A stretch of DNA of 32,000 bases from an uncultured Candidatus Saccharibacteria bacterium (GCA_964543385.1 CAZIYE010000004.1:17233-49232); one strand, 5' to 3'. Counted from the stretch's first letter, positions 11,484 to 20,528 are shown. Notes: generated from the sequence alone by a model not told the origin. A program made the numbers and translations.

Positions 11484-12941
11484 CTATTTCCCAAAATTAA
11501 TTGATGAAAGCGGGATATTAGCAAGAAATTCAACCATCCGCAGAATATATTCAAGACCTGGCCATAATGCTGCAACTGCAACTTTGCCAATTGGATAACA
11601 AATAATACCAAGTAAGCCAGTGGCAAATGTGGCAAGCATAATCCAAGGAACTATCCAGACTACGAGGATATTGGCGATTGGCGAAATTATAGAAACTAAG
11701 CCAAATTGGCAGAGAATCAGTGGAGTAACCGCAAATTGTGCACCCAAAGTTTCAGATAATGCTAACCTTACATTTTCCGGTAAGAAATTTGTCCTTTTCT
11801 TCTCTAGATATCGGGCTATCACCGGAGCCAAATAAATCAATCCGGCAAAGGCCAAGAAGGATAACTGGAAGCCAATATCATATGGCAAAATGTATGGATT
11901 CATCAAGACCATAACCATTGCTGCAAGAAGTAATAAATTAGTTTGATCTGCTCTTCTTCCGATGGTTGAGCCGAATAAGATGAGTAAAGAAAATATTGCT
12001 GCTCGAACTACGCTCGCCGAACCTCCGGTCATGACAACAAAGAGTGTAACTAAAATTATGCCCAGCAAAAAAGTTTGTCGACGGCCAAGATATATGACTA
12101 AAGATTTGGCGAATATTGCGATTAGGATTGTGACGTTAAAGCCCGACAAGGCAATAATATGAGTAAGTCCTGTTTTCTGGAGATCAAGCATCAGATCGTC
12201 CGGAATATTTTTCTTGACACCCAGCAATATACCAGAAGCTAAAGATGAGTGTGGCTCTGGCAATAATCTATTGAGAGAATTTTCAAAAGTGTTTGCTATG
12301 TTGTATAGAAAACCATATACCCTATCTGTTGGATTGGCTGAAAAACCTTGGAAACTAATTTTTGTAGGGCTTTTTATCTCTCCGACAATATGCCATCTCT
12401 TGAGATAGTTTTTATAGTCAAAACCAGAAAAATTCTCTGGTTCTGAAATTTTACCCTGCAAATTTAAATATTCACCGAAATGATATTCTGGAAATGTAGG
12501 AAGACGAACAATTACTTTTGCCCCAATCATCTCTTCTGAAGTGGCACCGTCTGCTAAGCATTTCTCGATGCTAATAACGACCTTTTGATTTTTGTAGTTT
12601 GGCTCAGGCCTCTGAGATATCTTTCCGACTATCTCTAAATCCTTTTCAAATGTTATATTTCGCTGATTTTTCCAATCATTGTATGAATAAAATCCAGATC
12701 CCAAAAAAAGAAAAAACAGACAAAAAGAGATAAGAACCAAAATTTTTGATTTGAACAAATAGTTAAAGAGTGCGGCACAAAGTAGTGCAATAATTACATA
12801 TAAAAATATCTGCCACGACACGGAAAAATTAATATTTACGAGAGAGGCAATAAAAATACCAGCAAGAAACGATGAACAGAGGACCGTAAAAATACGGTAT
12901 GGATAATAAATATCTTTAAAGATTTTAGCTAGAGAAGCCAT
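11484..12941 (-). CDS. comEC: ComEC/Rec2 DNA-uptake channel protein (DUF4131 + competence domain), lacking the MBL domain
   Basis: 485-aa polytopic membrane ORF with the OB/DUF4131-like N-terminal region and a competence-domain motif (GLTHIIALSGFNVTIL). It stops at TAG 11486-11484, 2 nt before the MBL ORF, which is in a different frame. Confidence 0.85.
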   Translation of the reverse strand: MASLAKIFKDIYYPYRIFTVLCSSFLAGIFIASLVNINFSVSWQIFLYVIIALLCAALFNYLFKSKILVLISFCLFFLFLGSGFYSYNDWKNQRNITFEKDLEIVGKISQRPEPNYKNQKVVISIEKCLADGATSEEMIGAKVIVRLPTFPEYHFGEYLNLQGKISEPENFSGFDYKNYLKRWHIVGEIKSPTKISFQGFSANPTDRVYGFLYNIANTFENSLNRLLPEPHSSLASGILLGVKKNIPDDLMLDLQKTGLTHIIALSGFNVTILIAIFAKSLVIYLGRRQTFLLGIILVTLFVVMTGGSASVVRAAIFSLLILFGSTIGRRADQTNLLLLAAMVMVLMNPYILPYDIGFQLSFLAFAGLIYLAPVIARYLEKKRTNFLPENVRLALSETLGAQFAVTPLILCQFGLVSIISPIANILVVWIVPWIMLATFATGLLGIICYPIGKVAVAALWPGLEYILRMVEFLANIPLSSINFGK

Positions 12942-18668: not shown

Positions 18669-18743
18669 GGGCCGTTAGCTCAATGGTAGAGCAGTGGCCT
18701 TTTAAGCCATTGGTTCTGGGTTCGATCCCCAGGCGGCCCACCA
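18669..18743 (+). tRNA. tRNA-Lys (anticodon UUU), CCA encoded
   Basis: Manual cloverleaf: acceptor GGGCCGT/GCGGCCC, D arm GCTC-AATGGTA-GAGC, anticodon arm GTGGC-CTTTTAA-GCCAT, variable TGGTT, T arm CTGGG-TTCGATC-CCCAG, discriminator A, then CCA. Confidence 0.9.
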
Positions 18744-18751
18744 ATAAAAAC

Positions 18752-18777
18752 GCATCACAAAAGTGGTGTTTTTTTAT
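18752..18777 (+). terminator. intrinsic terminator after tRNA-Lys
   Basis: CATCAC (18753-18758) / GTGGTG (18763-18768) with one G-U pair, loop AAAA, followed by TTTTTTTAT. Confidence 0.6.
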
Positions 18778-18922
18778 TGTTTTTTATGTTCGACTCCTCG
18801 CTTGTCAACCAAAGATTTAATATCCCTAGAGATATTTTTTAAAACGGTAATTGCTTGACTATATCAATGCAAGGCTTTAGATTAGTAACTTGCTACTTTT
18901 ATTAATATACAAGAGATTACCA

Positions 18923-19669
18923 ATGAAATTAAATAAAAGATTAATATTGAAAAATTGGCGTGCTTATCTACTAGTCTTGTTTCTGCTTTTAGTTCTCGGT
19001 ACAAGAGGCGTTATCTACGCTAAAGATTTTAAAAATGCAAAACAGATAATCAGTAAAAATGAAGAAACTGCTGCAATCGCAACAGCAGCTGCCCCAGACA
19101 CAGCAAAGGAACTGGAACTCCCAGTCGAAATTCCGGTAGAGACTCCGAAGGCAGAAGTAGTATCTCCGCCAGCCACGAAAAAGACGACTACGTCGAGCAC
19201 TCCTGCCCCAACCCGCCGGCAAGCAACACCACTTAAAAATAATGTTGCACCATCAACTCCTACACCAGTGACAGCTCCTGTCCCAAAAGATGTTAATTTT
19301 TCTGTCAGTCAAATTATTGCACTTATAAACAATGAAAGAGCCAGGAATGGACTGCAACCAGTAATTGAAAATGGTCTTTTAAATCAAGCCGCCTATCTTA
19401 AGACTAAAGATATGTCAGACAATAATTATTTTGCTCATACTGCTCCAGATGGAACGGCTGATGTATATTTTGTAGAAAAAGTTGGCTACAAATACCAATC
19501 AATCGGATTCAATATAGCAAAGGGCGATTTCGGCAACTCTGCTGGTCTCGTACAAGCATGGATGGATAGTACGGGACATCGAGCAAATATTTTGGCAAAT
19601 TATGGCCAACAAATTGGGATCGGTATTTATGGTAAATACTACGTAATGATGATCGCAAAGGTGCTGTAA
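18923..19669 (+). CDS. secreted/anchored CAP (SCP/YkwD-like) domain protein with a Pro/Thr/Ala-rich linker
   Basis: Start at ATG 18923 (MKLNKRL; the ORF-track start at 18890 is TTG). Signal-anchor helix, low-complexity linker, then a CAP domain: INNERARNGLQP, YFAHTAPDG, WMDSTGHRANIL. Confidence 0.8.
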   Translation: MKLNKRLILKNWRAYLLVLFLLLVLGTRGVIYAKDFKNAKQIISKNEETAAIATAAAPDTAKELELPVEIPVETPKAEVVSPPATKKTTTSSTPAPTRRQATPLKNNVAPSTPTPVTAPVPKDVNFSVSQIIALINNERARNGLQPVIENGLLNQAAYLKTKDMSDNNYFAHTAPDGTADVYFVEKVGYKYQSIGFNIAKGDFGNSAGLVQAWMDSTGHRANILANYGQQIGIGIYGKYYVMMIAKVL

Positions 19670-19759
19670 TTGATTATAAGATAATTGTTATGCTCCGATA
19701 AAACTATCCTTTTTTTGCTACTTTTATTTCTTTCAAGCACAAAACTATTGTATTTTTCT

Positions 19760-19788
19760 TTGACACAATATTGATTTTGTGTTATACA
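19760..19788 (+). promoter_or_regulatory. promoter-like element of GC-rich cassette 2
   Basis: Consensus TTGACA (19760-19765), a 17-nt spacer, then TATACA (19783-19788) preceded by TG. It contains the same 12-mer TTTTGTGTTATA (19775-19786) as cassette 1. Confidence 0.45.
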
Positions 19789-19816
19789 TATGACATCCAA
19801 AAAGGAGGTTACCCCC

Positions 19817-20260
19817 ATGAGTATCTTTTCCTGTCCGACCCTCTGGATTGCCGTGATCGGTGCCCTTGGCGGCATCATTGCGCTGATCAAATCATTGGTG
19901 GCCAAATTTCGCAAGTCCAAAAGCAGCAATGCAACCCAGGACATAACAGTAGAGACAGAACAACTGTCACAGCAAGATATCGAGTATCTCATCCGGTGCC
20001 TGAATGATTCTTGCTATCGTGCGAGGATTCGCGCTGTCCATAACCTTGGCGAATTCAAAATCGCCTCATCATTACCAGCGCTGATAAAGCGAGCCGAAAA
20101 AGAAGACGATGAAGATGTCAAGGAAGAAATCGTCTACGCCTTGTCAAAAATCGCGACGCCAGAAGCAATCGAATATATCCGCGAAATGATTGAGGACGAT
20201 TGCGAAAATGTCCGCGAGGCTGCTGAAAGGTGCCTAAAAGCATTTACAGTAACCGCCTGA
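19817..20260 (+). CDS. N-terminally membrane-anchored HEAT-repeat (PBS-lyase HEAT-like) protein, compositionally atypical
   Basis: ATG 19817 lies 8 nt after AAGGAGG (19802-19808). TM helix LWIAVIGALGGIIALIKSLV followed by KFRKSK. HEAT-like repeats follow: ...RARIRAVHNLGEF...ALIKRAEKEDDEDVKEEIVYALSKI.TPEAIEYIREMIEDDCENVREAAERCL. The ORF-track ATG at 19790 sits in the -10 box with no SD. Confidence 0.65.
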   Translation: MSIFSCPTLWIAVIGALGGIIALIKSLVAKFRKSKSSNATQDITVETEQLSQQDIEYLIRCLNDSCYRARIRAVHNLGEFKIASSLPALIKRAEKEDDEDVKEEIVYALSKIATPEAIEYIREMIEDDCENVREAAERCLKAFTVTA

Positions 20261-20265
20261 TCCTG

Positions 20266-20304
20266 CCCCTAGCACAGAAACTCGTGCGAGGGGTTTCTGT
20301 TTTT
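20266..20304 (+). terminator. intrinsic terminator of cassette 2
   Basis: CCCCTAGCAC (20266-20275) / GTGCGAGGGG (20284-20293), 9 of 10 paired, with an 8-nt loop, followed by TTTCTGTTTTT. Confidence 0.6.
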
Positions 20305-20309
20305 AATGG

Positions 20310-20528
20310 CTATTTTTTGATTCTAAATATTATCTTTTTGTCGCTCTTAGCTGACTCCCCTGTTTCCAATTTCCGTGGGGACATAGCTCGAACTTTTTTT
20401 AGATCTATTATTTTGCCATCTTCGAGTATTACTTTGCCACTTTTGTGATCGGAAAACTTTCCGGTCATGGTCTGGCCGTCTTTAAAAATAATAAATATCG
20501 TAGTACCTTTTGAAAAACTAGTATGCAT
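20310..20528 (-). CDS. hypothetical 72-aa Lys-rich protein
   Basis: ORF with native (low-GC) composition, 6 nt downstream of the EamA gene stop and co-directional with it. No SD and no recognisable family (MHTSFSKGTTIFIIFKDGQTMTGKF...). Confidence 0.35.
   Translation of the reverse strand: MHTSFSKGTTIFIIFKDGQTMTGKFSDHKSGKVILEDGKIIDLKKVRAMSPRKLETGESAKSDKKIIFRIKK

Follow-up and report, generated by a model that had tools for sequence, protein, structure and literature searches.

A membrane-anchored HEAT-repeat gene of elevated G+C in a variable tRNA-Lys slot of a Saccharibacteria genome: a probable case of horizontal acquisition

Introduction

How does a single small gene come to differ in base composition from the genes on either side of it while carrying what look like its own signals for transcription and translation? 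The question is raised by a gene in a stretch of 32,000 nucleotides from an uncultured Candidatus Saccharibacteria bacterium (GCA_964543385.1, CAZIYE010000004.1:17233-49232), which we refer to as the window and whose positions are counted from its first letter. The open reading frame (ORF) at 19817-20260 on the plus strand encodes a protein of 147 amino acids with a transmembrane (TM) segment and HEAT repeats (here the HEAT protein), and the whole unit, signals included, spans about 0.55 kb. The genome in which it lies (G000) is a metagenome-assembled genome (MAG) of 902,808 bp on four contigs, with 38% GC, from the ultra-small Patescibacteria. A first-pass annotation made from the sequence had described the unit as an atypical cassette of the same build as a second one at 13.6 kb in the window, and had suggested that the two share an origin or a regulon.

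We found that the HEAT gene is an ordinary accessory gene, present in few lineages, that encodes a new HEAT_2 protein in a transfer hot spot. That the gene was acquired is very probable in our view. The fuller account, in which a horizontally acquired accessory unit sits in a hot spot, is expressed by host-type signals and supplies a membrane-tethered binder, we regard as likely. The evidence for each of these steps is given below, together with the alternatives on which it bears, and the coordinates of the features are collected in Table 1.

Results and discussion

A GC-rich gene between neighbours with host-like codons

The G+C content of the HEAT ORF is 0.478, and at third codon positions (GC3) it reaches 0.52-0.53. 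In a crude baseline of 925 ORFs without overlaps, which takes in 91% of the genome, the median GC3 is 0.335 and the 95th percentile lies at 0.517. Given its own amino acids and the synonymous usage of the genome, the gene would be expected to have a GC3 of 0.327 +/- 0.038, from which the actual value departs by z = 5.1, and its codon likelihood falls in the lowest 4.7% among the 794 ORFs of at least 100 amino acids. The hand counts of the first-pass annotation (30 and 28 G+C in two 60-nucleotide segments of the ORF versus 19 in 60 in the CAP gene upstream) were borne out, as were its coordinates for the ORF. Its further statement that the gene sits between native low-GC genes holds for codon usage, which is host-like in the CAP gene (z = -1.1), in the 72-amino-acid gene (z = 0.1) and in the EamA gene (z = 0.2), but not for the history of the locus: the CAP gene is not native to it and is itself co-resident accessory cargo. 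Within the HEAT gene the TM part has a GC3 of 0.64 and the HEAT part one of 0.48; a mosaic origin was considered on account of this gap and rejected, the difference being too weak with 42 codons.

A slot whose cargo changes between genera

To place the gene in its genomic setting we compared the locus, by DNA search and by tblastn of the neighbouring genes, among MAGs from genera of one family. The conserved order begins with a dnaJ-like gene and two genes for membrane proteins; after tRNA-Lys(UUU) comes a variable slot, followed by the 72-amino-acid gene and the EamA gene in those genomes that have them, and finally by lepA. The slot held different cargo in each of the nine genera compared, and the locus thus behaves as a hot spot between core flanks, with GC-rich cargo in three of the nine. 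Where this genome is set beside that of G008, the two have the tRNA terminator in common, diverge after it, and reconverge at the stop codon of the 72-amino-acid gene. In this genome the slot (18744-20310) showed no ORF for an integrase or transposase, nor was the 3' end of the tRNA repeated there.

Many transfer hot spots are without mobile-element genes, with recombination at the flanking core genes (PMC5635113). The core-flanked hot spots of horizontal gene transfer described by Oliveira, Touchon, Cury and Rocha (2017, PMC5635113) resemble the tRNA-Lys slot in their conserved flanks, their fast turnover of unrelated cargo and their want of mobility genes, the difference being that those authors compared strains of one species, whereas our comparison spans genera of one family and was made on MAGs. 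For Patescibacteria, individually transferred genes are described as common and as mostly exchanged among the members of the group themselves (PMC12455944), a pattern with which the slot is also consistent. The window also contains a ComEC-type gene, and a DNA-uptake channel is therefore encoded nearby. Entry of the HEAT unit would most likely have been by DNA uptake with subsequent recombination in the conserved flanks, or else by insertion at short homologies; the moving unit would comprise at least the Shine-Dalgarno (SD) sequence, the ORF and the terminator, and would carry no mobility gene. The slot from tRNA-Lys(UUU) to the 72-amino-acid gene beside lepA could also serve more generally to sample the flexible gene pool of the family.

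A phage gene left behind by a decayed mobile element or prophage at tRNA-Lys would offer another route to the same arrangement. A phage moron, in the concept of Hendrix and Juhala, is a single extra gene inside a phage genome that has a promoter and a terminator to itself and departs from its surroundings in base composition. The HEAT unit is like a moron in being a single gene with its own signals and an odd composition, and it lies near a tRNA; moreover, the neighbouring CAP protein matches phrog_16914, of the moron/host-takeover category (E 1e-23), and a 14-nucleotide direct repeat brackets the CAP gene. It is unlike a moron in its location, with no phage genes around it and no phage relative: the slot has neither an integrase nor a phage gene nor a duplicate of the tRNA 3' end, and so does not qualify as a tRNA-integrated island; the HEAT protein gave nothing meaningful in PHROGs, and 2.9 million viral contigs yielded no relative of it; and the tRNA's own terminator, which is conserved in G008, stands between the tRNA and the cargo. 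We therefore think a prophage remnant very unlikely here.

A sparse family with one informative relative

The presence/absence comparison proposed in the first-pass annotation agrees with acquisition, as does the outlying codon usage. No relative of the HEAT protein was found in the genome of the same genus (G001), nor at the slot locus in eight other genera. Of 44 genomes of the order two had a homologue at E <= 1e-10, as did three of the 162 compared from the class, where one of the matches was weak (27% identity, with an internal stop); a sample of 400 other genomes of the phylum gave none at E <= 1e-12. A word-indexed search of a clustered set of 5.8 billion proteins returned only the HEAT protein itself and a 71-amino-acid fragment of the copy in a genome denoted G007, while exhaustive phmmer against 1.84 billion representatives returned only long generic HEAT proteins at 26-35% identity. 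The GTDB genome contigs yielded no close homologue, and among metagenome contigs the sole match was a near-identical copy of the G007 contig.

The G007 relative is therefore of particular value. It belongs to another genus of the family (contig C101, GCA_037131475.1 JBAXQZ010000101.1) and is 53% identical over residues 45-141. Its neighbours are genes for SIMPL, SpoIIM-like, DNA-alkylation-repair and argininosuccinate-synthase proteins; our genome encodes no homologue of the first two of these, and the locus is thus a different one. The copy has nevertheless retained a AAAAGGAGG SD and a clearly homologous terminator, from which it follows that SD, ORF and terminator travel together. It has no TM segment, and one extra base after its ATG puts this start out of frame with the HEAT repeats, an offset that would reflect either decay or a sequencing error. 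With a GC3 of 0.32 it is host-like, and at the 55 identical residues where a synonymous choice exists its GC3 is 0.36 versus 0.58 in the gene studied here (20 versus 8 discordant sites, p = 0.036). GC-richness is thus not a trait of the HEAT family: the SD and terminator travel with the ORF and the codon composition does not persist, an observation that bears on whether such units are GC-rich as a relic of their transfer or through active maintenance.

Two G007-type assemblies (L002:1-60 and L024:1-10) break within about 60 nucleotides of the 5' end of the HEAT gene, for which a population polymorphism at the left junction and a decaying gene are possible causes.

These comparisons bear on two alternatives. 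The first is that the gene is old and native and was not recently acquired, its GC-rich codons being maintained internally through mRNA structure or expression level. A promoter of host type, as described below, is what such a gene would have. On the other hand, the gene was found neither in the genome of the same genus nor at the locus in the other eight genera, the sole homologue is host-like in GC3, and the 5' region of the mRNA folds unremarkably (z = +0.8), which also led us to discard a regulatory fold in the 5' untranslated region. We consider a native origin unlikely.

The second alternative is an artefact of assembly or binning that placed foreign GC-rich DNA in a Patescibacteria contig. 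The genome is a MAG, and both G007-type assemblies break at the 5' end of the gene, but the unit has conserved syntenic genes on both sides in the interior of a 49-kb contig, and its AT-rich promoter and 16S-matched SD fit the host. Furthermore, a separate Logan assembly (SRR12261227) matches our sequence at 100% identity over 4576 bp across the CAP gene, the HEAT gene, the 72-amino-acid gene, the EamA gene and lepA, both junctions included, and the exact HEAT protein is present on four contigs. The chance of an artefact is in our opinion negligible.

Signals for expression

We then asked how such a gene might be expressed in its present host. The first-pass annotation had described a consensus promoter, an AAGGAGG SD and a 10-bp hairpin terminator. 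All the promoter elements lie where they had been placed, but the consensus scanner missed the site because the final base of the -10 hexamer is A and not T. What remains is a good, imperfect sigma-70-like site, which we treat as a candidate promoter only. The SD is present in full, and since the 3' end of the 16S rRNA carries the canonical anti-SD, the two can pair over their whole length. As for the terminator, the scanner called a 10-pair stem at 20274-20300, as expected from the first pass, and the minimum-energy fold gives a GC-rich stem of 6+4 pairs at 20265-20294 followed by UUUCUGUUUUU (-19.1 kcal/mol, z = -2.2). An alternative start at ATG 19790 was rejected: it lies 2 nucleotides past the -10 hexamer and has no SD, and the G007 copy starts directly after its own SD. 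A scan of Rfam matched only the tRNA.

Going by these signals, transcription would probably start from a host-type extended -10 promoter, translation would probably be efficient by way of a perfect SD that is rare in native genes, and transcription would probably stop at the unit's own hairpin.

One cassette style among many

The likeness in build between the HEAT unit and the cassette at 13.6 kb was confirmed, both having an SD, a GC-rich ORF and a terminator. The 13.6-kb cassette lies between grpE and dnaK, has a GC3 of 0.57-0.60, an SD and a strong terminator, and belongs to no Pfam family. The style is found genome-wide. Counting ORFs of at least 80 amino acids with a GC3 of at least 0.5 outside the rRNA genes, there are 44 in 38 islands, 33 of which consist of a single gene. 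A full AGGAGG stands ahead of 24% of ORFs with a GC3 of at least 0.47 (n = 58) versus 2.8% of the rest, and a downstream fold of -12 kcal/mol or stronger follows 62% of the former versus 17% of the remainder (Fisher p ~1e-5; Mann-Whitney p 1e-10). As a full AGGAGG is rare in native genes in spite of the canonical 16S 3' end, the strong SD appears to be borne by the cassettes. Many of the GC-rich ORFs are also preceded by AT-rich DNA with TTGACA/TATAAT-like promoters. No paralogy links these ORFs, their GC3 spans 0.50-0.73, and a Pfam family is absent in 17 of the 20 that were scanned, the exceptions being weak matches to Amidase_3, UbiA and AA_kinase. The HEAT unit is like the other single-gene cassettes of this genome, the 13.6-kb one included, in its host-style promoter, strong SD, GC-rich ORF, GC hairpin terminator and position in a variable gap between core genes; it differs from the 17 in having a recognisable domain, and its sole homologue is not GC-rich.

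Do the HEAT and 13.6-kb units then have a specific common origin, or belong to one regulon by way of their promoters? An exact 12-mer covering the TG and the first part of the -10 element is common to the two, and in both a strong SD, a C-rich spacer and a GC hairpin terminator are found. In addition, TGTGTTATA stands ahead of four GC-rich genes among the eight of its copies that have a downstream gene. Yet of the five copies of the 12-mer in the genome two lie 22 nucleotides before genes of native composition (GC3 0.30 and 0.37), which favours reading it as an extended -10 element of the host; the style is common to some 44 GC-rich ORFs; and the spread of GC3 among them speaks against one common donor. 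The HEAT and 13.6-kb proteins are not related to each other, and the co-occurrence check that had been proposed along with the idea turned out against it: nothing matching the 13.6-kb protein was found in G007, which alone among the other genomes has a relative of the HEAT protein, or in G001 or G008. A special link between these two cassettes is consequently very improbable, and the suggestion of a common origin or regulon is not supported.

A shared mode of acquisition for all GC-rich units may still apply. Although speculative, and in our estimate rather unlikely, it is tempting to think of the roughly 40 GC-rich units, and of like ones in other Patescibacteria, as one circulating pool of portable modules (strong SD, ORF and GC hairpin terminator) that move by DNA uptake into core-flanked slots. 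If this were true, the HEAT unit would be visible in two states, one fresh, GC-rich and TM-anchored in this genome, the other ameliorated, anchor-less and decaying in G007, and, in a host where few native genes have a strong SD, these portable signals (SD and terminator) would point to a source compartment so far unrecognised, for example an undescribed element or phage of these bacteria. As the HEAT cassette is among the few GC-rich cassettes with a recognisable fold, it offers a practical entry point to the function of such cassettes.

An integron-like nature was considered for these units, which, however, have their own promoters and 3' hairpins that do not amount to a conserved site, bar one 16-mer common to the HEAT unit and one other. 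This 16-mer is found in the HEAT terminator (20283-20300) and in the terminator (G000:C1:132826-132875) of an unrelated GC-rich gene of the UbiA family (C1:132016-132825). The two terminators are also alike in design (C-rich arm, loop, G-rich arm, TTTCTGTTT), and a third similar one follows C1:156653-157363.

A TM helix and three PBS-type HEAT repeats

The predicted product had been described as one TM helix followed by two or three PBS-lyase-type HEAT repeats, a scaffold and not an enzyme, and this description is well supported, the number of repeats being three. The protein clears the Pfam gathering thresholds for HEAT_2 (PF13646, residues 55-141, E 6e-16, 58.9 bits where 27.7 are required), for HEAT_PBS (PF03130, residues 101-127, 24.2 bits against 20.9) and for HEAT (PF02985, 35.0 bits against 23.5), and is accordingly a member of HEAT_2/HEAT_PBS. 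Its best phmmer matches by sequence in the Protein Data Bank (PDB) are alphaRep proteins (E 6e-19 to an alphaRep fusion), aligned in register over 87-88 residues, just short of three repeats of 31 residues. For AlphaFold2 (AF2) the single-sequence model was poor (predicted local distance difference test, pLDDT, of 51), and a two-sequence alignment gave a usable one, in which six helices are seen and pLDDT exceeds 90 across residues 50-140. When searched with Foldseek, the model superposed on alphaRep 4jw3 with a root-mean-square deviation of 1.6-1.7 A over 94 columns, a target-normalised TM-score of 0.87 and 30% identity; its stacked hairpins, superposing on solved members, place it among the solenoids. 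CpcE/F, MTH187 and deoxyhypusine hydroxylase ranked far below alphaRep, CpcE/F (5n3u) being a weak match at rank 31.

The comparison with alphaRep is instructive. The alphaReps (3ltj, 4jw3; small natural member MTH187, 1te4) have the same 31-residue repeat and fold, and like the HEAT protein they are small, non-catalytic and built for binding. They differ from it in being an artificial consensus and soluble, whereas the HEAT protein is natural, has only three repeats and carries an N-terminal TM anchor and a linker. The phycobilin lyases CpcE/CpcF and NblB have the same Pfam repeat type (HEAT_PBS, HEAT_2), but the HEAT protein is half their size or less and the slot contains no gene for a partner subunit. 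An identity as a phycobilin lyase was rejected on the NCBIfam equivalog scores (NblB 27.5 versus 300 bits, CpcE 23.7 versus 330, CpcF 16.6 versus 220). To our knowledge a phycobilisome is not to be expected in a non-photosynthetic patescibacterium.

Several other identities were likewise set aside. A HEAT metalloenzyme of the deoxyhypusine hydroxylase type is contradicted by a match of only E 0.001 to 4d4z (residues 60-140) and by a single His (residue 75) with no His-Glu pair. For known anti-phage defence, PADLOC returned local matches at the level of the repeats only, namely 81 residues of a HEAT-ARM model of 1972 positions (E 1.5e-7) and WGR_XIII (E 1.8e-4), and there were no partner genes. 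A lipoprotein or Sec signal peptide does not fit an N-terminus with no positive n-region, a Cys at position 6 outside a lipobox context and positive charges after the helix. Finally, the genome encodes a family with a Cys-tipped N-terminal handle (an amphipathic helix of the form M-x-C-x-x-hydrophobic-T), and a scan for this pattern found an array on contig C3 and not the HEAT protein, whose N-terminus is a hydrophobic TM helix.

The seven residues before the TM segment are uncharged and the flank after it (KFRKSK) has four Lys/Arg. By the positive-inside rule, positive charges following the helix imply an N-out/C-in orientation, and the HEAT domain would accordingly face the cytoplasm. The HEAT protein would then be bitopic, with a short N-terminus outside, one TM helix, a flexible linker of 18 residues and an acidic solenoid of three HEAT repeats in the cytoplasm. 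No catalytic signature was seen in the protein, which makes a membrane-tethered binding module the most likely kind of product. Such a module might hold or sequester a single partner protein on the cytoplasmic side of the membrane; this cytoplasm-facing binder of a single partner is our best mechanistic guess from the model, offered tentatively and with real doubt.

Several points weigh against the account as a whole. The -10 hexamer does not have the conserved last T; the topology is drawn solely from the positive-inside rule, and the binding function from the fold alone. There is no nameable donor, the nearest proteins beyond the two lineages being generic long HEAT proteins at about 30% identity, and as the other genomes are MAGs a gene not found in them falls short of proven absence. 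The sole relative, moreover, looks degraded (extra base, no TM segment), so that the family could be dispensable or decaying.

Features of the locus and neighbouring genes

Table 1. Features of the locus in the window, and contents of the slot in the genomes compared.
Feature	Location	Strand	Basis or description
ComEC-type gene	11484-12941	-	Pfam Competence E 2e-49, and DUF4131
tRNA-Lys(UUU), left anchor of slot	18669-18743	+	ARAGORN; Rfam tRNA 69.4 bits; same tRNA flanks slot in eight relatives
tRNA terminator hairpin	18742-18779	+	hairpin common to G008
14-nt exact direct repeat, copy 1	18890-18903	+	brackets CAP gene body; only two exact copies in 903-kb genome
CAP/YkwD-type secreted-protein gene	18923-19669	+	248 amino acids from ATG 18923; Pfam CAP E 5e-12; TIGR02909 YkwD domain E 1e-26
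14-nt exact direct repeat, copy 2	19715-19728	+	between CAP stop and HEAT promoter; leftmost plausible edge of HEAT unit
Promoter-like site of HEAT gene	19760-19788	+	-35 TTGACA 19760-19765, 17-nt spacer, TG 19780-81, -10 TATACA 19783-19788; read directly from sequence
SD AAGGAGG	19802-19808	+	8 nt ahead of ATG
Codons for single hydrophobic helix (about residues 8-33)	19838-19915	+	AF2 single-sequence model (helix 8-33); hydropathy scan, one TM segment
Three alphaRep/PBS-type HEAT repeats, six helices (residues 52-143)	19970-20245	+	Pfam, phmmer, AF2, Foldseek
Intrinsic-terminator-like hairpin and U-tract	20265-20305	+	GC-rich hairpin 20265-20294, U-tract 20295-20305
72-amino-acid gene, unknown family, right anchor of slot	20310-20528	-	convergent with HEAT gene; followed by EamA gene and lepA
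Slot in this genome (G000)			CAP/YkwD gene and HEAT gene
Slot in G001 (same genus)			495- and 350-amino-acid glycosyltransferase-like genes, named by eye from sequence
Slot in G008	L016:2220-2516		297-bp mini unit, GC 0.475: TTGACA-17-TATAAT, small 5' hairpin, AAAGGAG SD, very short ORF, GC hairpin and T run; no Pfam family
Slot in G002	L018:2153-2563		136-amino-acid ORF, GC3 0.66, no Pfam family
Slot in G010, G003, G006 and G014			other ORFs
Slot in G013			almost empty, 93 bp

The CAP gene has a host-like GC3 of 0.30 and was not found at the same locus in relatives. The genome has two CAP/YkwD paralogues, of which one (G000:C1:666621-666962) has a counterpart at 40-45% identity in nearly all relatives. 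The paralogue in the window is patchy, with closer relatives (51-53% identity) in 4 of 22 genomes of the family, and where both were fetched these relatives sit on contigs other than those with the tRNA-Lys slot. A functional pairing of the CAP and HEAT genes is unlikely, as they have separate promoters and differ in GC3 (0.30 versus 0.52), and relatives of the CAP gene occur without a HEAT gene. The 14-nucleotide repeat around the CAP gene may be a footprint of the entry of the CAP unit by short-homology insertion or by an insertion that generates a duplication.

At the right side of the slot, the product of the 72-amino-acid gene is 86% identical at the amino acid level in G001, 81% in G008 and 69% in G010, and it matched no family in Pfam, PADLOC, PHROGs or NCBIfam. 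At the left side, tRNA-Lys(UUU) is inverted with respect to the conserved flanks in G010 (L017:4050-4124) and in G006 (L021:4263-4337), which suggests local rearrangement.

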